Positions 4,316-61,963 are shown, counted from the first letter of the stretch. The stretch: 64,000 nt of DNA from Patescibacteria group bacterium (GCA_049322215.1 JBMORU010000001.1:65357-129356); one strand, 5' to 3'. Made by a program: numbers and translations. Notes: generated by a model from the letters alone, not told the origin.

Positions 4316-4428
<113 letters not shown>

Positions 4429-4614
4429 TTATATACATAAATTTTTAAACTGCTAATTAGATTAGCTCATGCGCCTTTTCTCGTTCCAAGAAAGCAACCA
4501 AAAAAGGCGAAAAAGCCAACCTAATTAAAATTTGCATTACGTAAATAGCAAAAAGTCGAGTGCTTTTTACCAATGGTAAAAAGCCGTAGAAACTTTAACA
4601 CATAAACATTGTTT

Positions 4615-7640
<3,026 letters not shown>

Positions 7641-7912
7641 AGAGAATACGCAATTTATATTCAGAGAACACAAATCACGGTATATATTAAAGTCTCGTTG
7701 ACTTTTTACCTTAGTTTTAAAACATAAAGTAAAAAGCGTTTGAGTGACTTTTTGCTATTTGCCTAATGCAAATAAAGAATAAGTCATTTATTCTATATTA
7801 AGTTTACAAAGTACCTCTTTTTACAGAGTCAAAGTTAAAAACTTAATAAACTATATTAAGTTCTTAAATTTAACTACGTACCCAAATTTACAAGCTAAGC
7901 TATGCGATAACT

Positions 7913-7989
7913 TGGTGGACCCGACGGGAGTCGAACCCGTGACCTCCGCAGTGCAAATGCGGCGCTCTAGCCAACTGAGCTACAGGCCC
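7913..7989 (-). tRNA. tRNA-Ala (anticodon TGC), CCA encoded, G3:U70 identity pair present
   Basis: Reverse complement GGGCCTGTAGCTCAGTTGGCTAGAGCGCCGCATTTGCACTGCGGAGGTCACGGGTTCGACTCCCGTCGGGTCCACCA folds as a cloverleaf. Anticodon loop is TTTGCAC. Confidence 0.9.
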
Positions 7990-8201
7990 TCGCCTGTTTA
8001 GTTAAAATATTAATGTTAAGTTGGAATTAAGAGCTTCCGTCAAAAAGCTTTAAACCCGAAAAATCGAGTAGAAGGTAAATTCCCATTCCGTAGGAGTAAA
8101 TTATCACTTTGAGTAAACAATGTCAATAAAATTAATGGGTCTAAAGTTTATAGCAAAAAACTAAAAACTTTAAACCCAAATGTGTCAGAAATGGTTATTG
8201 A

Positions 8202-8588
8202 CTACGCAAGAACAAGCTTACCGTGCCGAGAACTTTTAACAGTATAAGTTTTGCCGCACAAGTGCACAAGCTCCCCTTTAGAAATGTGTGCCATTCCGTA
8301 AACAGTTTGCGCACCACCGCTACCACCAACTTGAACAGAATACTGGCTGTAACCGTTTGAACTTCGAGTATGCAACTGAACTGGCCCCTTATAGGACTGA
8401 AGCTGCAATGACCGACGATCAGTAAAACGCACCCAAAAAGTATCTCCATCGTAAGTTACTGAGTCACCATAGTTTAAACGTTTTGGTCCAAACAATGCTG
8501 TGGGGAGTTTTACGCCATCAACATAAACGTTATTGTACTTTTTTTGCTGACCATTACCTTGCCCTGTCAAAGTATCTTTCTTAGACAT
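8202..8588 (-). CDS. hypothetical protein (128 aa) embedded in the 16S-23S spacer
   Basis: ORF preceded by a strong SD (TAAGGAGAGACA-ATG, reverse complement of 8589-8603). Gly/Ser/Tyr-rich with no family recognised. Locally GC-richer than the surrounding spacer. Confidence 0.55.
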   Translation of the reverse strand: MSKKDTLTGQGNGQQKKYNNVYVDGVKLPTALFGPKRLNYGDSVTYDGDTFWVRFTDRRSLQLQSYKGPVQLHTRSSNGYSQYSVQVGGSGGAQTVYGMAHISKGELVHLCGKTYTVKSSRHGKLVLA

Positions 8589-8747
8589 TGTCTCTCCTTA
8601 GATAAATATTGGGATTTGTAAATTTCCTATGTTATAGGGTAAGGGCTATGGTAAAACATTGTATTGGCGTTGTCAATTAAGCAAAAACTATTACATACTC
8701 TTTACATATTCATGTTAATATATTAAAACGTATATGCCCTTTAGTAA

Positions 8748-8824
8748 GGGCTCGTAGCTCAGTTGGTTAGAGCGCTCCTCTGATAAGGGAGAGGTCGATG
8801 GTTCGAATCCATCCGAGCCCACCA
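8748..8824 (+). tRNA. tRNA-Ile (anticodon GAT), CCA encoded, on the strand opposite to the rRNA genes
   Basis: GGGCTCGTAGCTCAGTTGGTTAGAGCGCTCCTCTGATAAGGGAGAGGTCGATGGTTCGAATCCATCCGAGCCCACCA gives a clean cloverleaf with anticodon loop CTGATAA. Confidence 0.9.
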
Positions 8825-8861
8825 AGCTGTAAATCCACTAAACAAGTTAATATAAAACTTT

Positions 8862-8886
8862 AAAAAAAAGAGCACCGGAGTGCTAA
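8862..8886. terminator. Bidirectional hairpin terminator between tRNA-Ile (+) and the NUDIX gene (-)
   Basis: aaaaaaaag-AGCACC-gga-GTGCT-aacttttattt. The GC hairpin is flanked by an A-tract on one side and a T-rich tract on the other. On the minus strand it reads hairpin followed by TTTTTTTT. Confidence 0.5.
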
Positions 8887-8889
8887 CTT

Positions 8890-9303
8890 TTATTTGTTGT
8901 TAATAAATTCTAAAACAGGAGAAGCTAGATCGTAATAGACAAAATTAGAAAATAAGTCAGGTTCTACCCATCTAAACTGTTCAACTTCAGAAGTATCAAT
9001 TAACAATGTATATGCTTCAGACACTAGAGTACAAGCAAAGTAATGCAATACTACTTTTTGTGAGGGAATAATAATTTCATGAATTTTGCGAACTACCGAA
9101 ACTTCATGTCCAGTTTCTTCGTATGCTTCACGTACTGCTGCCTCTTCATGAGTTTCATCATCATAAACTTTACCCCCAGGAAATGTCCAGGAGAGTCTAT
9201 TTTCTAACCCATGTAATGAGGGATCATAGCGTTTTACTAACAAAACGCTGCCTGTAGGGTTTTTAACTACAGATAAAGCTACTTGTGTTTGATTATCTTC
9301 CAT
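8890..9303 (-). CDS. NUDIX hydrolase
   Basis: 137 aa with a Nudix box GGKVYDDETHEEAAVREAYEETGHEV (GX5EX7REUXEEXGU). Confidence 0.8.
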   Translation of the reverse strand: MEDNQTQVALSVVKNPTGSVLLVKRYDPSLHGLENRLSWTFPGGKVYDDETHEEAAVREAYEETGHEVSVVRKIHEIIIPSQKVVLHYFACTLVSEAYTLLIDTSEVEQFRWVEPDLFSNFVYYDLASPVLEFINNK

Positions 9304-9570
9304 AAATTATCTTAATTTCTATATCGTTTACACTTAGCGCTTCAAGGAATAATAAGCAAAAAGAATGTCTCATTTAAGGGTTTAGGCTCACCCTTGAACC
9401 TGCTCATCCAACCCCGTGAGGGGGGTGGTGTACAACTACTACCTATGAGCTGCTCGATAGTAGCGTATGTTTTTTCTTTCATCGGTCTTTTTAAGACACA
9501 CTGTCAAACACAAAGGATTGACCATCTTAAAAAGGTTCCGCGATCAAAAACATAATATTCTTTCTCTTTA

Positions 9571-11035
<1,465 letters not shown>

Positions 11036-11116
11036 AAACATTCTTTTTGCTTGCCATTCCTCGAAATAACAAGCATTCTTGAATACTAAGTAATATTAAA
11101 AAATCAAAGAGCAAAT

Positions 11117-11175
11117 CAGATTATACTGAGATTCACGCTTCCCGCAAGATACCAATAAATAAGATAATAGTCAAC
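11117..11175 (-). promoter_or_regulatory. Putative sigma70-type promoter(s) for the 16S rRNA gene
   Basis: On the minus strand, TTGCGG-16nt-TATAAT (plus-strand 11142-11147 and 11120-11125), about 80 nt upstream of the 16S 5' end. A second TTGACT-17nt-TATCTT lies just upstream (11146-11174). Confidence 0.35.
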
Positions 11176-11266
11176 AACTCACTACTTATTAGTTTCAGCG
11201 TAGTATCTACTATAAATAGAATTTAGATAATTGCAAATTTATCTATGTTTAAGGTAACTATTAAGA

Positions 11267-13618
11267 ATGCAAAAAGCGATCGTAGTTTCTATGCTCATTA
11301 TTACATTTTTCTCTATAAATACAAGTAAAGCTTTTGGACAAGAAATAATACCTACTACAGAAAATGGCTTTTACATTACCTCTGTCGAAATTACACCTTG
11401 GGGAATTATGAGTGGAGAATTTGATCAACGCGCGTGGAAAAACCCTTTTAATGGCATAAAAATTTCAAAAGATAAAGGCGTCTCCTGGACAGCGTCAGGA
11501 CTAAAAAATAGAGGTATTACAGATTTACACTACCAAAACGGTATTATATATGCAGCTACATACTATTTTGTAGAACAAGAAGCCGGTCTTTTTGTATCTT
11601 ACGATGCAGGAATAAACTGGACACATTTAGGGAACAACTTTTCAACTACAAAAGTAACTACAAGCAACGACACTATTTACCTAGGAACATATAGCCATGG
11701 GCTATGGAAGCATAGCAACGCAACAGGGTGGAAACAACTCATTGGCGATGGTTACTTTGGCCCTAAAATAACCCTCATAAAAGCAAAAGACAGCTACATA
11801 GTTGCACAAACATCGGTAGGTGTTTATGAATCAAATGATTTTGGAGAAACCTGGACAGTACCAGAAGTTTTTAAACAAACTACTATAAACGACGTTATCT
11901 TTATAGACGAGTTAACTATAGCTGCTACTAAAACTGGAATTTATACATCATCAGATAAGGGTATTACGTGGAATAAACAAAACAGTTTGAATGAAAAAAA
12001 CATAACAACATTATTCGCAACACCCAAACACATGTACGCCAGTGTTGAACAAAAACCTAATGAATTTGAGCTTTTGGTATCTTTAAACTCAGGAACTACT
12101 TGGAATAAATTTGCAACATTACCCATAAACAAGCCAAATGCCATAAAAGACATGACTTATATGTTTTCATTTCCATCAAAAATATATTTTGTGAGCCAAA
12201 CAAACGGAATATTTTACTTTTTAGAAGAATCAAACAACATAAAGGAGCCTTTGCTTAGAATTCCATGGCACTATAAAAAAGAATCTGAACTTGTCTCAAC
12301 TATAACATCTTATTTTGATCACGAATATCCATTCTCCGGGTATAAATACTACACAGAACCACCAGCTGTTAATGCAACAACTGTAAATTATCTTGGACAA
12401 AGAGCCAGAGAACCAATTTTATACTATAGTAAACACGATGGTGTGGATTTTGCACTGCCTTACGGTACTGAAATTGTAGCGGCACATTCTGGGCAGGCAA
12501 CTTATGCGTACGAAGAAAATGGTTTGGGTCATCATATAAATGTAGTCAGCGAAAACGGATTTCAAACTACATATGCACATATGCAAGAAAGTGGTTTAGC
12601 CACTAAAACAACTACTTGGATTGAAGAAGGAAATAAAGTTGGATTAGTAGGACTAACAGGAAAAACTACAGGACCCCACTTACACTTTGCAGTAACATAC
12701 GACAAAAATGAAAATGAAAACTTTACTGATAATGAAACAAATGGAAAAACAGATCCTTTTGGATGGCAAACACCGTTTTATGCTGATCCATGGGCAACAT
12801 ACACCTGGTTGGATAGTTTAGGTACCCATAACGGCATGGAAAGCTATTATATGTGGAAAAACAACCTACCAAAAAGCACTTTTAATATTACTAACAATTT
12901 GCAAAATATCACGCACGAAAACATAAGTATGCAGCTTCCTGAAAACTTTACACAACACGAAATCACTATTTCTATTCAAAACCATTCGATACCTGCAGTA
13001 CCACCTGAAAAAAACAAACTTGTTTATATAACAGGAACATCCTTTTTACTTAATGCCTACAACAACTTAGGGCAAGAACCTCCCGAGTTTTTAAAGCCTG
13101 TTCGAATTGAAATTGACTTTAGTGAAGCTGATTTACAAAACATTTTGCTGAATACACTTAGTATTTACTACCTAAATGACTCAACAAACAGTTGGGAAAA
13201 AGTTAACTCAGTATTAGATTTAGTAAACAAAAAACTTACAGCAGAAACTTCCCACTTTTCAAACTATGCTGTTTTTGCTGAAAAAATAGATTATGACGCC
13301 CCAAATACAATCATTGCAGTAATAGGTGCAAAAACAGGAAACTGGTTTACACAGTATCCAACTATAGAACTTAGTTATAATGATGCAGACGTTAACTATG
13401 TGTTTTATAAATTAAACAACGAAGTTACTTGGCGTGAGTATAGTGAACCATTTGAACTACAAAAAGAAGGAATAAATAAAATAGAATATAAGGCGGTAGA
13501 TGGCAACAACAACTGGGAAAATGCACACGACATTGTTATACCTATAGATACGAAAAATAAATGGAAAGATACTTCCAAGGTCTCAGAAATAGTAGTTGGC
13601 ACTGAAACTCAAAATTAA
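11267..13618 (+). CDS. Secreted BNR/Asp-box repeat protein fused to an M23 (LytM-type) metallopeptidase domain
   Basis: 783 aa with a signal peptide (MQKAIVVSMLIITFFSINTSKAFG). At least five S-x-D-x-G-x-T-W BNR repeats (SKDKGVSWT, SYDAGINWT, SNDFGETWT, SSDKGITWN, SLNSGTTWN). M23 motifs HDGVDFALPYGTEIVAAHSG and GPHLHFAV. Confidence 0.75.
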   Translation: MQKAIVVSMLIITFFSINTSKAFGQEIIPTTENGFYITSVEITPWGIMSGEFDQRAWKNPFNGIKISKDKGVSWTASGLKNRGITDLHYQNGIIYAATYYFVEQEAGLFVSYDAGINWTHLGNNFSTTKVTTSNDTIYLGTYSHGLWKHSNATGWKQLIGDGYFGPKITLIKAKDSYIVAQTSVGVYESNDFGETWTVPEVFKQTTINDVIFIDELTIAATKTGIYTSSDKGITWNKQNSLNEKNITTLFATPKHMYASVEQKPNEFELLVSLNSGTTWNKFATLPINKPNAIKDMTYMFSFPSKIYFVSQTNGIFYFLEESNNIKEPLLRIPWHYKKESELVSTITSYFDHEYPFSGYKYYTEPPAVNATTVNYLGQRAREPILYYSKHDGVDFALPYGTEIVAAHSGQATYAYEENGLGHHINVVSENGFQTTYAHMQESGLATKTTTWIEEGNKVGLVGLTGKTTGPHLHFAVTYDKNENENFTDNETNGKTDPFGWQTPFYADPWATYTWLDSLGTHNGMESYYMWKNNLPKSTFNITNNLQNITHENISMQLPENFTQHEITISIQNHSIPAVPPEKNKLVYITGTSFLLNAYNNLGQEPPEFLKPVRIEIDFSEADLQNILLNTLSIYYLNDSTNSWEKVNSVLDLVNKKLTAETSHFSNYAVFAEKIDYDAPNTIIAVIGAKTGNWFTQYPTIELSYNDADVNYVFYKLNNEVTWREYSEPFELQKEGINKIEYKAVDGNNNWENAHDIVIPIDTKNKWKDTSKVSEIVVGTETQN

Positions 13619-15273: not shown

Positions 15274-15969
15274 CTAACCGTGAGCTTCCTGCCGGTTGGC
15301 TTCAAACAGTTGAATCAATTGCCCAGCTTGATGCATACTAAGTCTGCTAATGAACATACGCCACACAATCGGGTTTCCCATTGCGTTTAGAGCATTGAAC
15401 AGCAAATCAGGATCAATTTGTCGCATCATTTTGTCTAGTCTTTTGGCAGCCTGCAGTTGATTTTCAGTAACCACCCCGTAGGCATCCATTTCTTCTTGCA
15501 AACGGATCTCACCATAGGTCAAACCGGCCAACTTTGCAGCAAACCCGTGGTAACCATGCCCTACAATTGTGTAGTACACGTCAAAACGACCCAAGCGCAC
15601 GTCTGGTCTAATCTGCCCCTGTTGGTAGCCAAAATTATCCACCTGGGTCAACTCCTCTACAAGCCCAAACCATGCCGTATGACCATGATTAGCACGCAAC
15701 CCATCCAAGTGTTTTTTCCACCACTCAAACGCGCGTTCCTCAATTGACTTCGGATCGGTTTGCGTAGGGCCAGCATAAGACTCCAGCACCATCAAAACCT
15801 GGTCCAAAACATTACGTTCAGCCGCATTCATCGCAGCGTTGAACAAATTCGGTTTTTTGGGATCTGCGTTCAAAATTTGTAATGCGGCAGCCTGATCTTC
15901 TTCATTTGCCCGGTTAAACAGCTTCCCCAATTTCTTCTTCAACATTGCAGTTTTCATTACGGTTTTCAT
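15274..15969 (-). CDS. hypothetical protein (231 aa) in locally GC-richer DNA
   Basis: Long ORF with conspicuously higher GC than neighbours. No signal peptide and no family recognised. Confidence 0.5.
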   Translation of the reverse strand: MKTVMKTAMLKKKLGKLFNRANEEDQAAALQILNADPKKPNLFNAAMNAAERNVLDQVLMVLESYAGPTQTDPKSIEERAFEWWKKHLDGLRANHGHTAWFGLVEELTQVDNFGYQQGQIRPDVRLGRFDVYYTIVGHGYHGFAAKLAGLTYGEIRLQEEMDAYGVVTENQLQAAKRLDKMMRQIDPDLLFNALNAMGNPIVWRMFISRLSMHQAGQLIQLFEANRQEAHG

Positions 15970-32221: not shown

Positions 32222-33217
32222 TTATTGCCCACTAACGCAGAAAGGCGTGTATTGTAGCCCATTTTGCGCGTACAGCCATTCGGTAAAAGACAACTGTGCA
32301 TTTTGCTCTTGTGCTTGTTTAAAGGCTTGAGCGTTTTCAGTGCCAATCCAGCGCCAATGCCAAGTTTCTGCATTTACGCCAGTTTTGCACTCATCACCCA
32401 TAGGATAAGGCATTACAAACCCAAACAAATGAGCATTGCTCTGCAAAAAATTTCCGGCAGGGCTTTGCGCAAAATCATTGGTCCAACCCGCAGCACCATT
32501 AAAATCTTCAATGCAAACGCCACTACTACAGTAGTTTGTAGTGAAATCTAACGCCAAACCAGTATGGTGCTCGGTATGCCCTGGACGCAGCGAGTATTCA
32601 TCTGCCAATGGATCTAGTCCAAGCCAGTACTCGTAAGCTGTTCTCTGACGTTCAACCCCACGGCAAGCTGTGCGCAAAGCCAGGTCAATTCCTTGTTCCT
32701 TGGCAGCGGTTACCAGCGCAGTCAAATCGGGAAGCATATCGCTTACAATATACTGTGCATCCAAAACCTCGCGAATACCTGTAGCAGATGCAGGCTGTAA
32801 ATGCGCTGCAACCGACAGGTCACCGTCAGGACATTGAATTTGCTCAGGAGTTAAACGATAATGTCGATCAACAACAATCAAACGAAAGTCGTTTACATAA
32901 ACCGAGTCCTGCACAGCATCAGGGTAACGCGCCCATTCTGTAAGTGTGGGTGCTGTGATGCTGTCTACCGTAGATGAAGTATCTGCAGGCAACTCATTAG
33001 TGCTATTTTCTGCAGAAATACTGTCACCTTCAACAACAAGGGTTGGTGTAGCAATGGCAAGGGTTTTTTTACTTTCTCCCATAGGTGCAACTAAAGTTTC
33101 CTCTTCACTTCCTGGAAACTCAGGCGCCGATAGAGAAGATAAAACAAAGCGTCCCACTAAAACCACGACTACAATGCCCACTAAAATCGCGACATGTTTT
33201 GCTTTCAAGTATTTCAC
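32222..33217 (-). CDS. Membrane-anchored D-alanyl-D-alanine carboxypeptidase-like zinc peptidase (M15/VanY, LAS superfamily), GC-richer
   Basis: 331 aa. N-terminal TM, S/T/E-rich linker, then PGHTEHHTGLALDF (H-x6-D metal site) and a later H. Confidence 0.6.
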   Translation of the reverse strand: MKYLKAKHVAILVGIVVVVLVGRFVLSSLSAPEFPGSEEETLVAPMGESKKTLAIATPTLVVEGDSISAENSTNELPADTSSTVDSITAPTLTEWARYPDAVQDSVYVNDFRLIVVDRHYRLTPEQIQCPDGDLSVAAHLQPASATGIREVLDAQYIVSDMLPDLTALVTAAKEQGIDLALRTACRGVERQRTAYEYWLGLDPLADEYSLRPGHTEHHTGLALDFTTNYCSSGVCIEDFNGAAGWTNDFAQSPAGNFLQSNAHLFGFVMPYPMGDECKTGVNAETWHWRWIGTENAQAFKQAQEQNAQLSFTEWLYAQNGLQYTPFCVSGQ

Positions 33218-43144: not shown

Positions 43145-44176
43145 TTATTCATTGGTTTCGTAAGGAACAACCTTAACCCAAATACGCGAATCCGGATTGG
43201 CAAAGTTTGTGAAAGGCACGGCGTTAACGTAGGTGGAACCGAGTTGCAATACATCTACAACGTTGCCCACATTCCCTGCATCGTCTGTATGAAAGCCGTA
43301 CACCGTAACCGCTAGTGCGTAACAACCGCCTTGAGGTTCAATGGCCTGCACGTTAATTTTGATGTTATCACTAGCTTCAGTTCCCCAGCGAATAGGGTTT
43401 GCAACAATTGGGTCAGAACTGAGCAAAGTAACACCAAAACCTAAACCACCCCAACTTGGCGAAATTGGCGAATGCGGATTATGCCAAGCCACCTTACCAT
43501 TAGGTACAATGCATGTTTCAGACATTGGAACCTCGGCAGGAGCCTCCGCATAGGAACATAAAGCGCTCGAACCAACAAAAAGCTCTTCTACGGTAGCTAC
43601 ATCTTCAAGAGACCAATCGTGGTATGTACGTGCTTCGGCAATCCAACCTGTAAGGGCAATACCGACGGCACCGGTGCCATTGATTTGGGTTTCTTCCGCG
43701 GTAATGTGTAGCATGCCGTCTACTGAGCGAGTCCACACGCGTACTTCTGCACCTTCGGGCACATAGTACTTAGTAGCATCATCGGTAGAAGCACCACACA
43801 CCGAACCATTGCGGCTGTGCGAAAGATAAACAACAGCATTTTCAGTAATTGTTGCAGTGTGCGTGGAAGTTATCACACTAGCAATAGAAACCCCATCAAG
43901 TTCGGTTAAATCCGTATCTTCTTCAGCGGTGGTTTCAGGCTCCGGAGTAACTTCAACAATACGCGTTACTTCTACTTCCTCATAAATTAGCGTAACGGGA
44001 ATTTCACCTTCTTCCGGGGCATCAATGACCACTCGCGTTACCTCAACTTGACGCACCACAACTGGCGCATTGGTTTTGGAAATTAAGGATAAACCTAAAA
44101 CCAAGTTCCCCAATAGCGAAACCATTAGCAACACCGCAAAAACCAGCGCAGCTGTTTTCCAATATTTAGTTTGCAT
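43145..44176 (-). CDS. Secreted/membrane-anchored hypothetical protein (343 aa), GC-richer
   Basis: Signal anchor, then an E/T/V-rich linker. No family recognised. Distinct composition. Confidence 0.5.
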   Translation of the reverse strand: MQTKYWKTAALVFAVLLMVSLLGNLVLGLSLISKTNAPVVVRQVEVTRVVIDAPEEGEIPVTLIYEEVEVTRIVEVTPEPETTAEEDTDLTELDGVSIASVITSTHTATITENAVVYLSHSRNGSVCGASTDDATKYYVPEGAEVRVWTRSVDGMLHITAEETQINGTGAVGIALTGWIAEARTYHDWSLEDVATVEELFVGSSALCSYAEAPAEVPMSETCIVPNGKVAWHNPHSPISPSWGGLGFGVTLLSSDPIVANPIRWGTEASDNIKINVQAIEPQGGCYALAVTVYGFHTDDAGNVGNVVDVLQLGSTYVNAVPFTNFANPDSRIWVKVVPYETNE

Positions 44177-50268: not shown

Positions 50269-51132
50269 ATGATTAAGTTAGAAAAAGCCCACAAGAGCTT
50301 TGTAGACCACTTACAAGATCTCAAAAGATCAGAGTCTACAATAATAGCTTATAGTAAAGACGTGGAGCAATTAATTGAACACCTCCTGGAAAAAGGTGTG
50401 AATCTTGTTCACGAAATAGAAACACATCACTTAGAAGACTTTATGGGTAAATTAGCCAACGAAAGCTATACGCCTAAGTCAATTTCCAGAAAAACCAACT
50501 CTACTAAAACCTTTTTTAGGTTTTTAATAGCAGAAGGTTATATTGAGGTAAATGCTGCAGACCAACTAAAACATCCTAAGGTTGAAGTGAAAGCACCAAG
50601 AATTCTATCTAGACTAGAATACGGAGCTTTACGCGATGTAGCTAAGGAAGATAATAGAACGTTTGCAATAATCGAAGTCTTGCTTCAAACAGGAATTAGA
50701 ATTTCGGAACTTGCCCAAATTAAACTAGAAGATGTGGACCTTAAAAACGGAACATTAACTATACCTGAAAGGGGTAACAACATGAGTAGAAGAATACCTC
50801 TTAATAAGGCTGTAGTTTCGGCTATCTCTTCTTACTTAGAAGAAAGACCAGAGATTGAAAGTGAATACTTATTCATAACAAAAACTGGACGTCCCCTTTT
50901 AGTAAGAAACATCAGAGCTACAATCGACAGGTACTTTAAAACTGCCGGTATTTCTGATGCTAAGGTAAATGACCTAAGACACACTTTTGTAGCCTTTCAC
51001 TTGGCTCAAGGTACAAATCTTTTGACAGTATCTAAAATTGCTGGTCACAAAAGAATTTCTACAACAGAAAGATACCTTGAATATATTGAAAAGGTTACAG
51101 AAGAAGAAAAAACGGAATTAGGAGTTCTTTAA
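50269..51132 (+). CDS. Tyrosine site-specific recombinase (XerC/XerD-like, phage integrase family)
   Basis: 287 aa. N-terminal SAM-like domain. Catalytic residues R (GIRISEL), LRHTF (HxxR), GHKRIS, and a Tyr in ERYLEY. Confidence 0.8.
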   Translation: MIKLEKAHKSFVDHLQDLKRSESTIIAYSKDVEQLIEHLLEKGVNLVHEIETHHLEDFMGKLANESYTPKSISRKTNSTKTFFRFLIAEGYIEVNAADQLKHPKVEVKAPRILSRLEYGALRDVAKEDNRTFAIIEVLLQTGIRISELAQIKLEDVDLKNGTLTIPERGNNMSRRIPLNKAVVSAISSYLEERPEIESEYLFITKTGRPLLVRNIRATIDRYFKTAGISDAKVNDLRHTFVAFHLAQGTNLLTVSKIAGHKRISTTERYLEYIEKVTEEEKTELGVL

Positions 51133-51739: not shown

Positions 51740-51815
51740 TGGTGGGTGATCCTGGGCTCGAACCAGGGACCGCTCGTGTATAAGACGAGTGCTCTACCAA
51801 CTGAGCTAATCACCC
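51740..51815 (-). tRNA. tRNA with anticodon TAT (UAU), formally tRNA-Ile reading AUA
   Basis: Reverse complement GGGTGATTAGCTCAGTTGGTAGAGCACTCGTCTTATACACGAGCGGTCCCTGGTTCGAGCCCAGGATCACCCACCA. Perfect acceptor, D and T arms, 5-bp anticodon stem CTCGT/ACGAG and loop CTTATAC. Confidence 0.75.
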
Positions 51816-53123: not shown

Positions 53124-54356
53124 CTAGCCTAAAACCTCCTTTGCTTTCAAAATACCGCTTACTAGTTTGTCTATATCACCTTTATCGTTATACAAATAAT
53201 AACTTGCTCTTGTAGAGGCAACTATTTGCAATGTAGTGTGCAAAGGCATGGTACAGTGATGCCCCGACCTAACTGCTACACCCTGCTCATTTAACACCGC
53301 AGCAACATCATGCGCATGAATTCCCTTTAAGGTAAATGCTACTAAACCAGTACGTTTAAGAGCATCCGTGGGACCCAATATTTCTAAACCTTCTATTCCT
53401 TGTAATTTTTCTAAAGCATATTTAGTTAGTAGTACTTCATGCTCTCTTATATTATCTATACCTACACTATTCAAATATTTTATTGCAGCAGAAAGTCCTA
53501 CTGCGCCAGCAATATTTGGGGTACCACCCTCAAATTTTTCAGGAACCTTGGCCCAAGTAGAGTTTGTAAATGCCACTTCATGAATCATACCGCCACCAAA
53601 CTTTATTGGAGACATATCTTCTAACAATTGTTGCTTACCCCATAAAACACCAATTCCTGTAGGGCCAAGCATTTTATGCCCGGAAAATGCATAAAAGTCA
53701 CATCCAAGGTTTTGGACGTTTACAGGCATATGCGGAATTGCTTGTGCGCCATCAACAATAACTTTAGTATTGTAATTCGACACTAACTTTTTTATATCTT
53801 TAATGGGTGTAATAGTACCTAAAACATTTGAGGCATGGCTGATTACAATAGCTTTAACTTTATTTTCGTACAAATCCAAAAAGTTTTTTATATCTTCTAA
53901 TAACAGTGTTCCCGTTATGTCAAAAGGGATTACTTCTAATTTAGCCTTAGCTGCCTTAGCAACTTGCTGCCAGGGCACTAAATTACTATGGTGTTCTATT
54001 CCAGAAATCAATATAACATCGTCTTCAAACACATTAAGCATACCCCAACCATAAGCTACTAAGTTTAAGCCTTCTGTAGTACCACTAGTAAACACTACTT
54101 CGCTGTCTTTATTAGCATTAATAAATTGTGCAACTGTGGTACGGGAGTATTCATACATATCTGTAGCCTCTTCGCTAAGCATGTGAATACCCCTATGAAC
54201 ATTAGCATTATGATTTAAATAGTAGTCGGATATTGCTTCAACAACCTGAACAGGCTTTTGCGAGGTAGCTGCGTTATCAAGATAAACTAGGGAATAATCG
54301 CCTACCTTCCTACTTAAAATAGGAAAGTCCTTTTTTATTTCATCCACATTAATCAT
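53124..54356 (-). CDS. sufS: Cysteine desulfurase, SufS type (class II aminotransferase class V)
   Basis: 410 aa. PLP Lys in FSGHKMLGPTG. Active-site Cys in RSGHHC. Confidence 0.9.
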   Translation of the reverse strand: MINVDEIKKDFPILSRKVGDYSLVYLDNAATSQKPVQVVEAISDYYLNHNANVHRGIHMLSEEATDMYEYSRTTVAQFINANKDSEVVFTSGTTEGLNLVAYGWGMLNVFEDDVILISGIEHHSNLVPWQQVAKAAKAKLEVIPFDITGTLLLEDIKNFLDLYENKVKAIVISHASNVLGTITPIKDIKKLVSNYNTKVIVDGAQAIPHMPVNVQNLGCDFYAFSGHKMLGPTGIGVLWGKQQLLEDMSPIKFGGGMIHEVAFTNSTWAKVPEKFEGGTPNIAGAVGLSAAIKYLNSVGIDNIREHEVLLTKYALEKLQGIEGLEILGPTDALKRTGLVAFTLKGIHAHDVAAVLNEQGVAVRSGHHCTMPLHTTLQIVASTRASYYLYNDKGDIDKLVSGILKAKEVLG

Positions 54357-54939
54357 TGAGAGATAAAGTATCCTTTAACTTTTGACGAATTTCGTCTGAC
54401 TTAATTGTAGCAAGAACACTTTCAAAAAAACCATCCACTATTAAATCTTGAGCTTCGACTCTAGTTAATCCACGACTTGTTAAGTAGTAAATTTGATTTT
54501 CATCTATTCTCCCTGTAGTTGCGCCATGGGAAGCTTTAACGTCGTCTGCTTCAATTTCTAAAATTGGTTGAGAATTGTTGTGAGTATTTTCACCTAGAAT
54601 CAAAACAGAATCATCAAGATAAGAACTTGTTTGCTGAGCTTTTTTATTTATCAAAATTTTCCCAATATAATCCGACTTAGAACCATTGGTTAAAACTCCT
54701 TTTACGTTAGTAACACATGTGGTATGCGGAGCTAGGTGATTGGCAATTGTCGTTAAGTGCAAATTATCACCCATGCCTAATTTGTACAAGCCAATAATTT
54801 CAGCTGCAACACCTTCTTTTTCAAATTTAAGTTCAACAACATATTTGCCACTTTTAAAGGGAATGTCTAAAACAAATTGAGTGTCTTCTGTTACAGAAAT
54901 TGAGTTATTTTCTTTTAATTTTAAAAATTCTACTTTCAC
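54349..54939 (-). CDS. sufD: SufD-like Fe-S assembly protein (short form, C-terminal core only)
   Basis: 196 aa. HGATTGRIDENQIYYLTSRGLTRVEAQDLIVDGFF is the SufB/SufD C-terminal signature. Confidence 0.65.
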   Translation of the reverse strand: MKVEFLKLKENNSISVTEDTQFVLDIPFKSGKYVVELKFEKEGVAAEIIGLYKLGMGDNLHLTTIANHLAPHTTCVTNVKGVLTNGSKSDYIGKILINKKAQQTSSYLDDSVLILGENTHNNSQPILEIEADDVKASHGATTGRIDENQIYYLTSRGLTRVEAQDLIVDGFFESVLATIKSDEIRQKLKDTLSLND

Positions 54940-55030
54940 TTAGTGTATTATTTGCTAAATAAAGTACATGTTATATGGAGCGATTCCGCAGCGAAGCGAA
55001 GACTTAGTGACATGTAACTTGTAGTTTTAT

Positions 55031-56470
55031 CTAACCAACAGAGCCCTCCATTTCCAACTCAATTAACCTATTTAGTTCTACAGAATATTCCATGGGCAAT
55101 TCTTTAACAATAGGCTCTATAAACCCAGACACTATTAAGCTCATTGCTTCTGCTTCACTTAAACCACGACTCATTAAGTAAAACATTTTTTCTTCACCTA
55201 TTTTACTCACTGTTGCTTCATGCTCTATTTGGGCACTACTATTGTCAATTTTCATTACGGGAAATGTGTCTGTTGCAGACTCAGCGTCTAAAATTAACGC
55301 ATCGCATTCAACCCTACTTTTGGCGTTTTTTGCAGATGGAGTAACAGCCACCATTCCTCTATAACTAGTCCTGCCACCATTAGCACTTATAGACTTGGAA
55401 ATTATTGTTGAAGATGTATTTGGAGCAATATGTATCATTTTAGCTCCTGCATCTTGGTGTTGATTTTCGTTAGCATACGCAATAGATAAAACCTCGCCAT
55501 GCGCACCCTCACCCACTAAGTAACAACTTGGATACTTCATTGTTAAACGAGATCCCAAATTACCGTCTATCCATTCCATTATTCCGTTTTTTTCTACACG
55601 AGCACGTTTTGTTACTAAGTTATAAACATCATTTGACCAATTTTGAATAGTCGTATACCTGCAACGGGCACCAGGCTTAACAATTATTTCTACAACAGCA
55701 GAATGTAAAGAATCTGTTGAGTAAACAGGAGCTGTACAACCCTCAACATAATGAAATTCGCTACCTTCATCGGCTATTATTAAAGTTCTCTCAAACTGAC
55801 CCATATTTTCTGCATTTATTCTAAAGTAAGCTTGTAACGGTCTTTTTAACTTTACTCCTTTTGGAACATAAACAAACGAACCTCCAGACCATACAGCACT
55901 ATTTAGTGCAGCAAATTTATTATCGTTAGGGGGAATAACTGTTCCAAAATACTCTTCGAAAAATTCTGGATGTTTTTGTAACGCTTCGTCTGTTCCCATA
56001 AATAAAACACCGTCTTCTTCAAGTTCTGACATTAAAGAGCCATAAATTACTTCAGAATCAAATTGTGCTTTAACTCCCGCTAAATGTTTTCTTTCGGCTT
56101 CGGGAATACCTAAGCGCTCGAATGTTTGTTTCATTTCTGCCGGAACATCATCCCAACTACGCTTTTCATCGTCAGTGGGTTTTAAGTAGTAGTAAATATT
56201 ATCGTAATTGATTTTGCTTAAGTCGCCACCCCAAGTTGGAGTAGGTTTTTCCTTAAAAATTCGGTAAGCCTTGAGTCTAAAATCAAGCATCCATGCAGGT
56301 TCATTTTTCATGGCTGAAATTTTTACAATTACATCTTCGTTTAAGCCCTTTTCGGCTTTAAAAACATAGTTTTCAGGAACATTAAAACCATACTTTGTTT
56401 TATAATCGGCATTAACGTTTACAGACGCCTCAGACTTTTTTTGATTTTCTGCCATTTGTTTTTTACCCAT
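55031..56470 (-). CDS. sufB: Fe-S cluster assembly protein SufB
   Basis: 479 aa. Conserved SufB core ([34 protein letters not shown]) and N-terminal region. Confidence 0.9.
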
Positions 56471-57202
56471 TTATTCACCAAAAGGCGCATAGCCCTTTTC
56501 TTCTAGTTCGTGCGCCAATTCAGAACCTCCTGTTTTTACAATTTTTCCATCCTGCATTATATGTACAAAATCAGGCTCAATATGCTTTAAAACACGTGTA
56601 TAGTGTGTGATTAAAAGTACTGTCATATCTTTCTTATCTTTTAAGTGATTAACAGCTTTTCCTACTACTTTTAAAGCATCTACATCTAAACCACTATCGG
56701 TTTCATCTAAAATGGCCAGTTTTGGTTCCATAATAAGCATTTGCAACATTTCCATACGCTTTTTTTCACCACCAGAAAAACCCTCGTTTAAATAGCGCGT
56801 CATAAAACTTTCATCCATATTCAACAGGTCCATTTTCTCTTTTAAAATTTTTCTGAAACGTGCCGGGGGTAGTTTTTCACCGTGCATTTTGTTATGAATC
56901 ATTCTCAAAAAATTAGATATTGTAACTCCTGTTACTTCGCTTGGGTATTGAAACGATAAAAAAACACCGGCAAGAGCACGCTCGTCGGGCTCCATTGCCA
57001 GTAAATCTTCGCCATTAAGTAAAACTGTACCTTTATTTATTTCATACATTGGATGTCCCATTAAAGATTGTGCTAAAGTGCTTTTACCAGAACCGTTTGG
57101 TCCCATAAGTACATGAACTTTACCTTTTGTAACTTCTAAATCTACACCCTTTAAAATAAGTTTTTCTTCAATTGATACCTTTAAATCTGTGATTTTTAAC
57201 AT
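56471..57202 (-). CDS. sufC: Fe-S cluster assembly ATPase SufC
   Basis: 243 aa ABC ATPase. GPNGSGKSTL, FSGGEKKR and DETDSGLD. Confidence 0.9.
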   Translation of the reverse strand: MLKITDLKVSIEEKLILKGVDLEVTKGKVHVLMGPNGSGKSTLAQSLMGHPMYEINKGTVLLNGEDLLAMEPDERALAGVFLSFQYPSEVTGVTISNFLRMIHNKMHGEKLPPARFRKILKEKMDLLNMDESFMTRYLNEGFSGGEKKRMEMLQMLIMEPKLAILDETDSGLDVDALKVVGKAVNHLKDKKDMTVLLITHYTRVLKHIEPDFVHIMQDGKIVKTGGSELAHELEEKGYAPFGE

Positions 57203-57507
57203 TAATTTTTCTCCGGGAATTTAATATCATGCACTACACAGTTTGCACTATAATGAGGGCATACTTCGTTTGCACTATAAATAACTTCTTTTCCATCTTT
57301 TCTAGAATCAAGAAGTCCGTTTTCACGCATTTCTTTTAAATGATATGAAACTGTAGGCTGCTTTAGATTTAAAAGTGAAACCAACTCAGACACAGAGGCT
57401 TCACCCTCATGTACTAAGTATTGGTAAATATTCATACGTGAAGAAACCCCTAAAGATTTAAAACATTGCGTACATTTTACTTTTTCGTTTGCTTTTAAAA
57501 TTTGCAC
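57202..57507 (-). CDS. ArsR/SmtB-family transcriptional regulator (putative suf operon regulator, Cys-containing)
   Basis: 101 aa with a wHTH (VSELVSLLNLKQPTVSYHLKEM) and Cys pairs near both termini. Its stop overlaps the sufC start. Confidence 0.7.
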   Translation of the reverse strand: MQILKANEKVKCTQCFKSLGVSSRMNIYQYLVHEGEASVSELVSLLNLKQPTVSYHLKEMRENGLLDSRKDGKEVIYSANEVCPHYSANCVVHDIKFPEKN

Positions 57508-57558: not shown

Positions 57559-60500
57559 TTAAAGATTATTCATTGGAGGTTCGGGAAAGTCATTTATACA
57601 TTCCTCAGGATCATCTGACTCACAGTGAACCGGATCTTGTACTGCATTTCTTAGCATGCTTCCCCAAACATGAATTTGCTCGGGACCGGCAGCACCAGAA
57701 TCAGCGCCACGACCTTGACCTTGTGGAGGGTCTTTTTCGTTAGATGCAATTTGATCTAGGGTCATAATAGAACCAATATCTGTCAAAGGCTCTAATTCTT
57801 GCGGAGGTGCAAACGGAAGCACAACCTCTAACGAGCACTTACCAACAGCAATTCCTCGACGTGCTTCAACAAAGGTATAGGCATCTAAGTCAGTTTCAAT
57901 ATCACCTAAACAAGCCGTGTCCCCATCCTCACCGTAACCTTGGGGTTCATCTTGGCTTCTATGCGTGCACGAAGTTACAATAAAGCCATCTGGTACAGAA
58001 GAGTAGTCACCATCTTCACACACGGCGCTTGCGCTAACACCATAGTCACTACATGAACATGTCCCAGCAGTACATGGAGGCCCGTCTAAAGTACAACTAT
58101 TTTCACAAGGAAACTCACTGTCTGCAGGACAACCCCCACCGCTCCAACTACCCCATGTATAAGGGTTACAGGTAGAGTTAGCAGGAATATCGTTACCCCA
58201 GACTCCAAATACCGATAGCAAGTTTGCAAAAAACTGTAAAACAGCACCAAAAATAGATTCGTTAAAGAATAGCCCTTGTGCTATTGGAGGTACTTCCTCG
58301 GTTAAGTATTTATACCCCTCAGATCCTCTATGAGTTTCATCACGAATAAACCATTCTTCATTAGTTGGATCTGTGGAACCAGTAGAGTGGTTGTAGGTAC
58401 AAAGTGATTGCTGCAAACCAATACGATACCAACCTCTGTTGCCTCCTTGGGGCAACTCAGTGTCAGGATTAAAGGCGTTGCCTTCGGTAGAATCTATACA
58501 CTGCACTTGAAATGGACTATGCCAAATCATAGAAGGAGGACCTCCCCATTGTGTATGAGAAACAGCCTGGTTTGAATACAAAATATTAGCCCAAGGCAGC
58601 GAATAAATACCTTGAGGTCCTGCAGGGTGTACAACATAGTTTAGTCCAAAAAATGGGCGGTCAGCTTTTGTACCATCTTCAAACGGAGCAATTCTCCATA
58701 CAGGATCTGCATTATTAATAAAAGAGTCATTAGTTGCCTCATTAAATTCTTTTGTTTGATAAGTTTTCTCTAAAGCACCACCTTCGTTGTATAGCAAAGC
58801 CACAGGAAAGTAGCGGCAATCCAAACTGTAACCACTTAATCCTGGAATATTAGGATCATTTTCGTCATAGGCTAAACGATCATCACAAGCATCATCCCAG
58901 GGAGGTTGAATTTGATCTAACATTACAACACCGCCACTATCGGTTTCGCAAGCGGGAACTGCGCTTGGGTCACTCATTAAGCCATAGCGTTCTTCCCACT
59001 CAAATGGACCTGCCCCACCAACGGCAGGACCCCCACATGTTTGACCGTTACGACCTTCATTTTCTTCTAAAGCAATTGGGTATGTGCATGCTGCGTTTCT
59101 TCTACATAAGGGTAATTCCTCTTCATCTATAGTTTCGTTCCTTGGGGGCGTAATATCATCTCGATAATTGTACCCGTAACCTGTTAATAAATAATTGGCT
59201 CCGTAGTACGAGGTTGCGTCTGTAGAATTATAAACACCATTTCTACCTTCTAACGGGTCTTTAGAAGTAACTTCATTATTTTGAGGAGGACATAATTGAG
59301 TAGCGGGGTCACAATCTGGGTCATCGGTAGGGGCGCCAATATACGAATCATCTACATCTTCTTTTAATAATTCAACGTTATAAACTACTGACGGAGTATT
59401 AGTAAAGCCATCTAAATCAAAGTTTTGCTCATTACATGTTAAATACTCAACCCTATCTACATACGATAAATCTCCCGGACAGGGCACTTGAGGTAAACCT
59501 CCGGGCAATGGCTCAACGTCTAAATTAATTGGCTGATAAATTTGAATATCGTGATCTAAGCTTACTTTTAAAATTTCCTTAGGTTCTCCGAAAGCGCAAA
59601 AAGCTATGTAGTTAGAGTTGTCAAAACTATCTGGAGTTCTATAGGTAGTTAATTCAAAATTACCGTTTTCATCTGTAAAAACAGTAGCTTCAGAATTTAC
59701 TATATGTCCTGCGTTTCTTTTACCAGTACCATAGTCCCAACTACCCTGATATGCAGTTACCGATACACCCGTTAACTTTTTATTAAGAGTTTCTGTTCCA
59801 TCACTTTCTACAAATTTTCTGGTAGAGCGCACACGACCTTTTATAACCACAGGCCATTCACAACTGGTATCGCTGTAATTACCTGTAGGCAAAGCACCTG
59901 ATGCTCTAACACCGAATTCTCCAATATAAAATAACTTTCCTAAAGCCGCTGCTTGTTGAGAAGCAAGCGCCATATTATTTTTTTCTGTAATCGTATAATA
60001 GTGACCCGATGCAATATCTATATTTGGATTGTCGTTACTTACAGTAAAATCAGCGGGGCTTTCAGCAGAAAGAGCACTATCCCCTAAGGTACAAGGCTGA
60101 CCCGACATTTGCCCAATTCCAACCAATTTAGACGAATCTACAGATTTTAATGCCGCTGCCATATCAGCAGCCCACTCAGCATAAAATGGTAAACAACCAC
60201 CTAAACCACCGCAGTGAGGCTCATTTAAAAGTTCGTAAGCATAAACACCGTTGCTACCAATAAAGTTGGCAGCAAGGTCTTGTGCATACGAATAATACGA
60301 CCCAACATAGTTGGGGCCTGTAATTTGAGATCTATAACCACCTGCGTACCAATTGGTTGGGTTAGATCTTACATTTCCATCAATACCTAATTCACAAGTG
60401 TTAGCAAAGTCACAAATTACAACAATCAAACGAATACCATAAGTGTTATATGCTAAATCAGCAATTTGCCTTGCAATTGGGTCGTTACCGTTTCTGTCAG

Positions 60501-60894
60501 GACTACCAAAAACACGCACCATATTCACACCACAACTTTGCAAATAGGCTAAAGCTTGGTCTGCAGCACCTGAGTTAAACAAATTAGGAACATTAACGCC
60601 TACCCAGTCAAAAGCCCCTGCATTGTTAGCTAAAGCCTGACAAGTATCGTCGCCTAAATAAAATGAAAACTCATCCTGACCAAAAACACCTGGACCACCT
60701 AATTCATGAGAATACTGCCAATATAAAAAGCCACGGGCTCCAATAGCTGCCATAGCCTGCATTTCGGCTTCCACGGTTGAAGAGCGCGCATCAGCGTACA
60801 CAGGTTTTACGTCAACGAATAGTGAAAAAACACTAAAAATAAAGGCGTTGACCAATATTATTAAAAAATATCGCGCGAATATTTTCATATTCAA
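57559..60894 (-). CDS. Giant secreted glycoside hydrolase family 5 (GH5) protein with an about 780-aa Cys/Gly/Asp/Pro-rich C-terminal extension
   Basis: 1111 aa. Signal peptide, GH5 catalytic motifs VRVFGSP (Arg), ELLNEPH (acid/base in NEP), GHYY and IGEFG (nucleophile). Then a long low-complexity Cys-rich region. GC-richer than flanking DNA. Confidence 0.75.
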   Translation of the reverse strand: MNMKIFARYFLIILVNAFIFSVFSLFVDVKPVYADARSSTVEAEMQAMAAIGARGFLYWQYSHELGGPGVFGQDEFSFYLGDDTCQALANNAGAFDWVGVNVPNLFNSGAADQALAYLQSCGVNMVRVFGSPDRNGNDPIARQIADLAYNTYGIRLIVVICDFANTCELGIDGNVRSNPTNWYAGGYRSQITGPNYVGSYYSYAQDLAANFIGSNGVYAYELLNEPHCGGLGGCLPFYAEWAADMAAALKSVDSSKLVGIGQMSGQPCTLGDSALSAESPADFTVSNDNPNIDIASGHYYTITEKNNMALASQQAAALGKLFYIGEFGVRASGALPTGNYSDTSCEWPVVIKGRVRSTRKFVESDGTETLNKKLTGVSVTAYQGSWDYGTGKRNAGHIVNSEATVFTDENGNFELTTYRTPDSFDNSNYIAFCAFGEPKEILKVSLDHDIQIYQPINLDVEPLPGGLPQVPCPGDLSYVDRVEYLTCNEQNFDLDGFTNTPSVVYNVELLKEDVDDSYIGAPTDDPDCDPATQLCPPQNNEVTSKDPLEGRNGVYNSTDATSYYGANYLLTGYGYNYRDDITPPRNETIDEEELPLCRRNAACTYPIALEENEGRNGQTCGGPAVGGAGPFEWEERYGLMSDPSAVPACETDSGGVVMLDQIQPPWDDACDDRLAYDENDPNIPGLSGYSLDCRYFPVALLYNEGGALEKTYQTKEFNEATNDSFINNADPVWRIAPFEDGTKADRPFFGLNYVVHPAGPQGIYSLPWANILYSNQAVSHTQWGGPPSMIWHSPFQVQCIDSTEGNAFNPDTELPQGGNRGWYRIGLQQSLCTYNHSTGSTDPTNEEWFIRDETHRGSEGYKYLTEEVPPIAQGLFFNESIFGAVLQFFANLLSVFGVWGNDIPANSTCNPYTWGSWSGGGCPADSEFPCENSCTLDGPPCTAGTCSCSDYGVSASAVCEDGDYSSVPDGFIVTSCTHRSQDEPQGYGEDGDTACLGDIETDLDAYTFVEARRGIAVGKCSLEVVLPFAPPQELEPLTDIGSIMTLDQIASNEKDPPQGQGRGADSGAAGPEQIHVWGSMLRNAVQDPVHCESDDPEECINDFPEPPMNNL

Positions 60895-61963
60895 AAAAAT
60901 TATACCAAAATTTGCTAAACTAATAAGTATGAAAAAGATTAAAGCGTTTTTTTACGTATATATAAAAAGTATAACTTCAATTGATTATTACAAAGATCTT
61001 ACCAAAGTAGGATTTGGATTTTCTTTTAAATACTTTGTTATTTTAGCAGCCCTTGCGGCTATAGTGGCAAGTGTAGGAATTTCGTTACCTGCATCTAAAA
61101 GTATAAACGAAGCAGTAAACAAAGGTTTAGATAGCTTGGTAAACCACTATCCTGAAGATTTGGAAATTACAATTAAAGAAGGCTTACTATCAATTAATAA
61201 ACCAGAACCTTACATAGTTAAGTTTCCAGAAGAGCTAACACAAGATTCTGAAGAATTTAAAGATCAAAATTTAATAGTTTTTGATTCAGAAGGAACAATA
61301 GACGATTTAGAAAACTACAACACTGTAATTTTAGTCAACAGAAAAAACATATTAGTAAACAACCCGGAGGCAACGGGAACAGATCAAATTAGAGTTTTAC
61401 CTTTAAGAGACTTTGAAGAAGGTACCTTAAACAAAGAAACCGTAATGTATTTAATAAATGAGTTTCGACCTTTAGCTAAATTTATTCCATACATAGTATT
61501 TACTGCAATTGCAGGTGCTATGATATTTTATTTCTTTGCTTACCGTCTTACCTATTTACTTGTGGTTACTGCAATTTTAATGCTTGTAGGAAACATAGTT
61601 AAAGTTAAACTACAGTTTTCTAAGTACTATCAAATAGGTTTACATGCTATGACTTTACCCCTAACTATAGACGTAATAACATTAGTAGCTAAGCAACAAG
61701 TACCGATACCTTTGTGGTTTTTGTTAATTAATACTGCAATTGGTGTTTTTGCTTTGTTGCGAATGAAGGAAGCAAGTGGCGAAATGAATAAAGTAAGTGA
61801 GGAAAATGCTAATGGTGAAGATGTAACGCATTGGCCCCAACCTCCAGTAGAAGTTGAGAAAACAGAAGAGAAGCCCATGGAAGTTGAGCAACCTGAAACA
61901 GTGGAAAACTCTGAAAGCGCAGATAATAGTGCTGATCAAGAAGAAACTAATTTAGGTAATTGA
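60848..61963 (+). CDS. hypothetical polytopic membrane protein with an acidic C-terminal tail
   Basis: 371 aa with 5-6 TM segments. The annotated start overlaps the divergent GH5 gene start, so the true start is probably the internal MKKIKAFF (about 60929). Confidence 0.5.
   Translation: MTNIIKKYRANIFIFKKIIPKFAKLISMKKIKAFFYVYIKSITSIDYYKDLTKVGFGFSFKYFVILAALAAIVASVGISLPASKSINEAVNKGLDSLVNHYPEDLEITIKEGLLSINKPEPYIVKFPEELTQDSEEFKDQNLIVFDSEGTIDDLENYNTVILVNRKNILVNNPEATGTDQIRVLPLRDFEEGTLNKETVMYLINEFRPLAKFIPYIVFTAIAGAMIFYFFAYRLTYLLVVTAILMLVGNIVKVKLQFSKYYQIGLHAMTLPLTIDVITLVAKQQVPIPLWFLLINTAIGVFALLRMKEASGEMNKVSEENANGEDVTHWPQPPVEVEKTEEKPMEVEQPETVENSESADNSADQEETNLGN

Follow-up and report, generated by a model that had tools for sequence, protein, structure and literature searches.

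What kind of enzyme is carried by a giant secreted protein of an ultrasmall bacterium, how is it put together, where did it come from, and on what would it act? These questions are raised by one gene in a 64,000-nucleotide stretch of DNA from a Patescibacteria group bacterium (GCA_049322215.1, JBMORU010000001.1:65357-129356), the whole of which is referred to here as the window. The gene is an open reading frame (ORF) of 1111 amino acids (aa) on the minus strand, and it was found uninterrupted, as it had been described in a sequence-only reading, which saw in it a secreted hydrolase of glycoside hydrolase family GH5 with a very long cysteine-rich extension, gained by horizontal transfer. NCBI holds a protein 100% identical to it (MFZ5424279.1, 1109 aa), which is 2 aa shorter through the choice of the ATG at 60888 as the start, and the automatic labels given to the protein by Pfam and NCBI are those of a plain GH5/cellulase. 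The best explanation as a whole, to which we give a probability of roughly 0.85, is a secreted GH5 enzyme whose barrel is circularly permuted and which is carried as an exchangeable head on a lineage-specific module. That the gene encodes a permuted GH5 and is native to the Candidate Phyla Radiation (CPR, i.e., the Patescibacteria) is, taken by itself, highly probable.

The GH5 head and the order of its strands

The ORF and the parts of it that make up the head are the following.

57559..60894, minus: whole ORF, 1111 aa counted from a TTG (ORF listing)
60793..60894, minus: signal-peptide-like N-terminus, aa 1-34 (MNMKIFARYFLIILVNAFIFSVFSLFVDVKPVYA, followed by D), of the same type as in homologues
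60613..60792, minus: helix 7, strand 8 and helix 8 in their relocated position, aa 35-94, with W59-Q60-Y61 and a FSFY-GD-C85 hairpin
59899..60612, minus: GH5 strands 1 to 7, aa 95-332, the domain ending directly past the nucleophile strand
60514-60516, minus: codon of R127
60220-60225, minus: codons of the acid/base pair N224-E225
59995-60003, minus: H298/Y300
59917-59919, minus: codon of the nucleophile E326

The head, aa 35-332, is predicted to be a GH5 glycosidase (clan GH-A), with the GH5_7 beta-mannanases as its nearest kin. PF00150 was matched at aa 110-347 (E=6.5e-8, 32.8 bits against a cut-off of 23.5), and the motifs NEP (N224-E225-P226), HxY (H298, Y300) and IGEFG (E326), already recognised in the sequence-only reading, align with the acid/base, His/Tyr and nucleophile residues of the GH5_7 mannanases of Trichoderma reesei and Podospora. 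The pairing with 1QNO, the T. reesei enzyme Man5A, is N224/E225 with N168/E169, E326 with E276, H298 with H241, Y300 with Y243 and W59 with W306, and W59 we take to be the strand-8 Trp of GH5. The family was thus assigned by Pfam and the catalytic residues aligned, the two points on which that earlier reading had staked its claim. R127 aligned weakly to the mannanases, and the conserved strand-3 His of GH5 was not identified in the protein, D162 sitting in that region. Conservation within the family is strict: R127, N224, E225, H298, Y300, E326 and W59 do not vary among 24 diverse members and hardly vary among 45, and the triplet W59-Q60-Y61 is invariant in the family alignment. GH5_7 enzymes were the top matches by sequence and by fold, with beta-mannanases and mannosidases the closest solved structures and the fungal beta-mannanases 1qno, 3ziz and 3wfl the best solved relatives by sequence, at 18-26% identity. 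An AlphaFold2 (AF2) model of aa 25-345, made with 24 family sequences, was confident (predicted local distance difference test, pLDDT, 90.9; predicted template modelling score, pTM, 0.91) and gave a single compact domain with the (beta/alpha)8 barrel fold of clan GH-A.

Where the protein departs from its family is in the N-to-C order of the barrel, which is not the canonical one: helix 7, strand 8 and helix 8 precede strand 1, i.e., the order is a7-b8-a8-b1...b7, and the chain of the domain stops right after E326. A full-length search of the PDB gave a weak alignment that paired aa 48-88 (GARGFLYWQY...FSFYLGD) with residues 307-346, at the C-terminal end of the mannanase 3ziz. A de-permuted construct, in which aa 95-332 were joined to aa 35-94, gave one collinear alignment that ran across the artificial junction to the ends of the mannanase chains, and the scores rose from 39.6 bits in native order to 45.4 for 3ziz, from 38.8 to 45.2 for 1qno, from 32.7 to 43.8 for 3wfl and from 29.3 to 39.3 for 3wh9. 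PF00150 behaved in the same way (33.6 bits in native order, 41.7 de-permuted), its match ending at position 239-252 of the 272 in the profile for the native order and at position 269 after de-permutation. The AF2 model has its elements in the rotated order, a helix, a strand (b8, with W59) and a helix, then seven strand/helix units (b1...b7) ending in the nucleophile strand, and sequential structure aligners superposed ~210 of its ~300 residues at a template modelling score of about 0.5, as expected for a permuted order.

Further evidence comes from the relatives. When 1.84 billion cluster representatives were searched exhaustively with HMMER, 206 matches were obtained, and for the best 151 of these the segment order was determined with separate hidden Markov models for the N-terminal segment and for the core. 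The segment stood before the core, the permuted order, in 79 of the 151 and after the core, the canonical order, in 36, with segment E-values down to 2e-21, while 33 had a core without a match to the segment. In the canonical relatives the mature chain begins at strand 1 (KF[IL]GVN), and their sequence ...FYIGEAGF-Cys loop-RAQ..E...F.AGA.GYL.WQYS...ND.FSFF.GDP.C pairs residue by residue with aa 35-94 of the window protein. Permuted members have instead a variable low-complexity linker after FYIGE.G, which in family member P0003 is polyproline. The break point falls at the loop, bracketed by cysteines, that joins strand 7 to helix 7 in the canonical relatives, e.g., P0035, P0052, P0068, P0075 and others, which have homologous cores (hmmsearch E 1e-46 to 1e-60), the same a7-b8-a8 segment, signal peptides, M23/SLT partners and neighbours from type IV secretion systems (T4SS), but keep the ancestral order b1...b8 and carry a Cys loop at the site of the chain ends of the permuted proteins. 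In a neighbour-joining tree of the cores, which carries no bootstrap values, all 76 full-length permuted proteins fell into one clade, whose sole other leaves were three N-truncated fragments, and this suggests that the permutation had a single origin. A tandem GH5-GH5 protein, the intermediate of a duplication-and-truncation route, was absent from the best 151 matches.

It would be possible to read the protein as an ordinary collinear GH5 with an unrelated N-terminal extension of ~60 aa, strand 8 then being missing or taken from the sequence past the nucleophile. This is how Pfam and NCBI annotate it, and the Pfam match in native order already exceeds the cut-off. That match stops short of the end of the profile, the supposedly unrelated extension is homologous to the C-terminal segment both of canonical relatives and of PDB mannanases, and the sequence past the nucleophile is the variable linker, whereas the W59-Q60-Y61 triplet never varies. 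We therefore consider the collinear reading very improbable, and aa 35-332, as far as sequence and the AF2 model show, is a permuted variant of GH5 and not a non-member of the family. The GH5 domain that the sequence-only reading had placed in the N-terminal ~330 aa is indeed there; it is not canonically built, and the permutation, the protein's most unusual trait, went unnoticed in that reading.

The likeness to the solved GH5_7 mannanases (T. reesei Man5A, 1QNO; Podospora anserina, 3ZIZ; Talaromyces, 3WFL; tomato, 1RH9) extends to the clan GH-A (beta/alpha)8 fold, to the placing of the active-site residues, with NEP behind strand 4, HxY behind strand 6, the nucleophilic Glu behind strand 7 and a Trp within strand 8, and to the C-terminal hairpin GxLxWQ[WY]...D.[FY][ST].[FY]. 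The window protein differs from them in placing a7-b8-a8 first, in its extra conserved cysteines and in its additional module of ~770 aa. A naturally permuted (beta/alpha)8 barrel has a precedent in the GH70 glucansucrases, which relative to GH13 have a rotated strand order with the catalytic residues kept. These enzymes belong to another clan, GH-H, and act on alpha-glucans, and the GH70 permutation has a break point different from that of the window GH5.

GH5 is among the largest and best-studied glycosidase families, and the barrel of these proteins shows that it tolerates chain ends directly past the nucleophile strand. A literature search, incomplete in its coverage, turned up no natural permutation described for GH5, for mannanases or for clan GH-A, and with the same reservation the permuted clade would be a CPR-restricted and previously unremarked one. 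The permutation explains why standard profiles truncate or miss such proteins: PF00150 was passed by only 26 of the 45 family members, and annotation in the style of CAZy would mislabel the members of this CPR-specific enzyme clade as ordinary "cellulase". A search with the NCBIfam profiles gave no meaningful match. A curated model that fits better than PF00150 may exist, since PF26410 (GH5_mannosidase) stands on the precomputed record of P0075, although the Pfam copy used here reported it neither for P0075 nor for the window protein.

Export, the C-terminal module and the locus

The head is one part of a protein that appears to be built for the cell exterior. The remaining parts and the surroundings of the gene are given below.

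59455..59862, minus: beta-sandwich, aa 345-480, eight predicted strands (AF2 pLDDT 50-80)
57607..59454, minus: Cys/Gly/Asp/Pro-rich lineage-specific module, aa 481-1096 (~620 aa)
60899..60907 (60907-60899), minus: promoter-like extended -10, TGgTATAAT, 10 nt 5' of the ATG at 60888, read from the sequence
60929..61963, plus: DUF1189 membrane protein, divergent, conserved beside the giant protein across related genomes
53124..57507, minus: ArsR-type helix-turn-helix regulator, sufC, sufB, sufD and sufS, co-directional with the giant gene and directly downstream of it, in conserved synteny
57542-57514, minus: promoter-like site, TTGACA-17-TAGTAT

Read by eye, the N-terminus looks like a Sec signal peptide, its basic n-region being followed by a hydrophobic core and a VYA/D site; what is known of the family likewise points to Sec export, so that the secretion proposed in the sequence-only reading stands at this level. 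The placement of the extended -10 immediately ahead of the ATG at 60888 favours this codon over the TTG, and it is the probable true start, giving 1109 aa; the same placement suggests that the 5' leader is very short or absent. A scan for consensus promoters did not list the extended -10, because no -35 box matches. The ArsR-suf genes probably form a transcription unit separate from the giant gene, with a promoter-like site of their own.

The C-terminal ~770 aa gave no Pfam match at E<=0.01, and no carbohydrate-binding module (CBM), dockerin or known adhesin was found there by Pfam at that threshold or by a profile of the sandwich region (aa 345-482), which had no match in the PDB. This agrees with the earlier description of the last ~780 aa as Cys-rich and free of recognisable CBMs; Cys accounts for 34 residues, or 3.1%, of the protein, compared with 0.7% in the window's other ORFs. 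An AF2 model of aa 340-1111 with 8 sequences had a mean pLDDT of 37 and resolved only the beta-sandwich, which by its sequence pattern resembles a prealbumin/CarboxypepD_reg-type fold. A weak TTR-52 match lies on the homologous region of P0105, and in P0077 a CarboxypepD_reg domain follows the GH5. The ~620-aa Cys-rich module is probably disulfide-bonded. A weak Pfam match to GH45 in aa 641-696 (E 0.014, below the cut-off) was dismissed as a compositional artefact.

Iterative searches showed the sandwich and the Cys-rich module to be one unit of ~750 aa: aa ~350-1096 align with P0015, P0032 and P0105, all of which are without a GH5 core, and also with the GH5-bearing P0004, P0005, P0014 and P0017. 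The order in the window, i.e., DUF1189, giant protein, (ArsR) and sufCBDS, recurs at four other loci.

L017: giant protein P0015, head not GH5; SufB 86% identical to that of the window
L019: giant protein P0032, head not GH5, VanY-type tail, ArsR present; SufB 79% identical
L020: giant protein P0005, permuted GH5 head; SufB 68% identical
L003: giant GH5 relative, permuted GH5 head; DUF1189 upstream and sufC downstream

P0015 and P0032 share aa ~365-1090 with the window protein (E 1e-57 and 1e-39) and carry an unrelated head of ~300 aa, for which, in P0015, neither a Pfam match nor a meaningful PDB match was obtained. The window GH5 core is closest to those of P0002 (53% identity) and P0007 (50%) and is 44-46% identical to those of the suf-locus group (P0004, P0005, P0014 and P0017), which hints at domain shuffling. 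Our interpretation is that the GH5 is an exchangeable enzymatic head, and that the C-terminal module, kept at the locus while the ~300-aa head differs between genomes, is a conserved scaffold or anchor. In such a protein the head would sit on the beta-sandwich and Cys-rich module that is inherited at a fixed position between DUF1189 and (ArsR) sufCBDS.

The divergent DUF1189 gene lies beside the giant secreted protein whatever its head, in the window as well as at L017, L019, L020, L003 and L005, the last having DUF1189 upstream of a GH5 relative and no suf gene detected in the flank examined. In the window the ATG starts of the two genes are 40 bp apart. The DUF1189 protein may be a functional partner of the giant protein, e.g., an anchor or export helper. 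A second module recurs downstream of permuted GH5 domains outside the window (P0003, P0006, P0011, P0016, P0018, P0020, P0022, P0023, P0030 and P0036); it has the motif E[FY]H.LRPYP.SPC and no Pfam match. At L017 the precomputed annotation places an intein (Hint_2, Intein_splicing and LAGLIDADG_3) within SufB (10185-12728); the SufB of the window has none.

Origin of the gene and its likely target

The gene had been called much GC-richer than its neighbours and attributed on that ground to horizontal acquisition, taken here as a recent one from a GC-richer polysaccharide degrader. Its overall GC is indeed above that of the neighbours, at 0.416-0.417 against a mean of 0.356 in the 40 other ORFs of the window, yet at z=1.5 the difference was overstated, and the strongest GC peaks of the window are those of the rRNA operon. 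The comparison of codon usage and GC that the sequence-only reading had proposed reveals no deviation at synonymous sites: GC at third codon positions (GC3) is 0.276 against 0.262 in the other ORFs (z=0.25), the excess falling in codon positions 1 and 2 (position 2, z=2.3), and when the protein was re-coded with the codon usage of the neighbours the predicted GC was 0.421, compared to 0.417 observed. The GC signal thus comes entirely from the amino-acid composition of a protein rich in Gly, Ala, Pro and Cys and poor in Lys and Ile (Gly 9.8% in this gene versus 6.3% in the other ORFs, Pro 6.8% versus 3.7%, Lys 1.9% versus 7.5%), and provides no evidence of transfer. The distribution of the relatives speaks the same language. 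A scan with one genome per GTDB species gave 15 loci, in metagenome-assembled genomes (MAGs) of Patescibacteria, Saccharibacteria or Woesebacteria and in some bins labelled Gammaproteobacteria or Pseudomonadales; the permuted clade appears to have been recovered only from Patescibacteria-type MAGs, and synteny is kept with genomes in which SufB is 68-86% identical. Neither the deviant synonymous composition nor the patchy distribution of an island gene is seen, the C-terminal module and locus look vertically inherited, and a recent acquisition is hardly credible. The case corrects the tempting step from elevated GC to horizontal transfer.

Other genes of the window are compositionally more striking. 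A 231-aa ORF at 15274-15969 (minus), without a Pfam match, is a true outlier (GC 0.466, GC3 0.496 against the mean of 0.262) and a better candidate than the GH5 gene for DNA of foreign origin; a non-coding stretch or a wrongly called ORF would fit as well. A VanY-type D-Ala-D-Ala carboxypeptidase at 32222-33217 (minus; GC 0.461, GC3 0.364) and a 343-aa protein without a Pfam match at 43145-44176 (minus; GC 0.468, GC3 0.384) are also GC-richer than the GH5 gene, at synonymous sites too.

The protein is probably exported by the Sec route as a multidomain extracellular or surface protein of its CPR cell, and its head would hydrolyse a beta-linked glycan, most likely, judging from conservation and family precedent, by the retaining double-displacement mechanism, in which E225 would serve as the acid/base and E326 as the nucleophile. 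The target would be a cell-envelope or extracellular polysaccharide of the host, of a neighbouring cell or of the producer, rather than plant mannan as food. This envelope-glycan role is the weakest link of the argument, a tentative proposal at somewhat less than even odds, and it is the genomic context of the relatives that leans towards it. Family members are fused to Peptidase_M23, SLT, SLT_3, SGNH or VanY-type domains. P0002, which has the closest GH5 head, is encoded (locus L021) between an M23 protein and PrgI/TraC-like/VirB4 genes, PrgI lies downstream of the GH5 relative at L001, and the canonical P0075 (GH5 plus M23, locus L016) follows directly after PrgI/TraC-like/VirB4. In these three cases the GH5 relative is in the position usually occupied by the VirB1/PrgK/TraG-type wall hydrolases of monoderm-type T4SS, although none of the known VirB1-type enzymes is a GH5, these being lytic transglycosylases, muramidases or CHAP/M23 peptidases. 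It has been proposed that VirB1 in Patescibacteria T4SS may be replaced by other glycosidases (PMC12102498), and transposon insertion sequencing in a Saccharibacterium revealed an essential T4SS together with essential envelope proteins that have polysaccharide-binding or -degrading domains, which the authors speculated to target host glycans (PMC10633639).

The alternative closest to the earlier reading is an endo-beta-1,4-mannanase or glucanase with which a fermentative CPR cell scavenges plant, algal or fungal polysaccharide, the C-terminal region serving in substrate binding. Beta-mannanases and mannosidases are after all the closest solved structures by sequence and fold, the catalytic residues are intact and the protein is predicted to be secreted. 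Against a feeding enzyme stand the neighbours DUF1189, ArsR and suf, with no sugar transporter, other carbohydrate-active enzyme or utilisation-locus regulator nearby, the failure of Pfam and of the PDB profile to detect a known CBM, the peptidoglycan hydrolases and T4SS genes to which relatives are fused or adjacent, and the unrelated head at the same locus in close relatives, which would be unexpected for a core nutritional enzyme. Scavenging is on these grounds unlikely, while retaining appreciable weight. Loss of activity has also to be considered, in which case the GH5-like domain would be an inactive lectin or adhesin part of a giant adhesin. This would suit so long, Cys-rich, extracellular and lineage-specific a protein, and Saccharibacteria are known to have essential proteins that resemble adhesins and bind glycans (PMC10633639). 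The residues of the active site (both Glu, Asn, His/Tyr, Arg and Trp) are nonetheless preserved across the family to a degree typical of active enzymes, and we regard a dead domain as improbable.

Some points weigh against the permuted, envelope-directed enzyme that we prefer, and are best stated together. That strand 8 lies between strands 7 and 1 was deduced from the secondary-structure order, the high pTM and homology, and the single origin depends on a tree without bootstrap values. The bins labelled Gammaproteobacteria or Pseudomonadales among the relatives had their labels taken as given. The scaffold or anchor role was drawn from synteny and conservation for a module to which AF2 gave no fold beyond the sandwich, and the substrate assignment leans on 18-26% identity to the solved mannanases. 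In the window itself, tblastn with VirB4, TraC-like and PrgI queries detected no T4SS genes in the 64 kb, the GH5 gene thus lying outside any such cluster, and Pfam detected no peptidoglycan-lytic domain (SLT, muramidase, CHAP or M23) in the protein, so that the envelope target of the window protein is suggested by its relatives.

A bolder form of the envelope-glycan reading would have a monophyletic, Patescibacteria-specific clade of permuted GH5 enzymes, carried as exchangeable heads either on the giant surface scaffold kept at the DUF1189-suf locus or on wall hydrolases linked to T4SS, cut the envelope glycan of hosts or neighbours during episymbiotic attachment or assembly of the secretion channel, and would possibly make this the first natural circular permutation described in GH5. 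In so complete a form it is speculative and rather unlikely; were it true, the protein would be a host-interface factor and not a feeding enzyme. In any case, few catalytic domains other than these heads can be recognised on the giant proteins that ultrasmall episymbiotic bacteria secrete, and the links of the heads to peptidoglycan hydrolases, T4SS clusters and a swappable-head locus provide a testable handle on the processing of the host envelope.

A 783-aa protein with BNR/Asp-box repeats and Peptidase_M23, encoded at 11267-13618 (plus) in the window, is probably another large, secreted, cell-wall-active protein of the same genome. BNR-like repeats, read by eye, seem also to be present in the C-terminal extensions of P0004 and P0005.

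Other features of the window

The window fits a small, AT-rich CPR genome (~35% GC), with its rRNA operon, ClpB, FtsH, a P-type ATPase, an ATP-dependent ligase and the suf genes. The rRNA operon occupies 4314-11036 on the minus strand (16S at 9572-11036, 23S at 4615-7630 and 5S at 4314-4427), and its 16S-23S spacer of ~1.9 kb holds a tRNA-Ala on the minus strand and a tRNA-Ile(GAT) at 8748-8824 on the opposite, plus strand. A further tRNA-Ile, at 51740-51815 (minus), has the anticodon TAT, which would read AUA directly, and near it, at 50269-51132 (plus), lies a gene for a tyrosine recombinase/integrase (Phage_integrase with a SAM-like N-domain).

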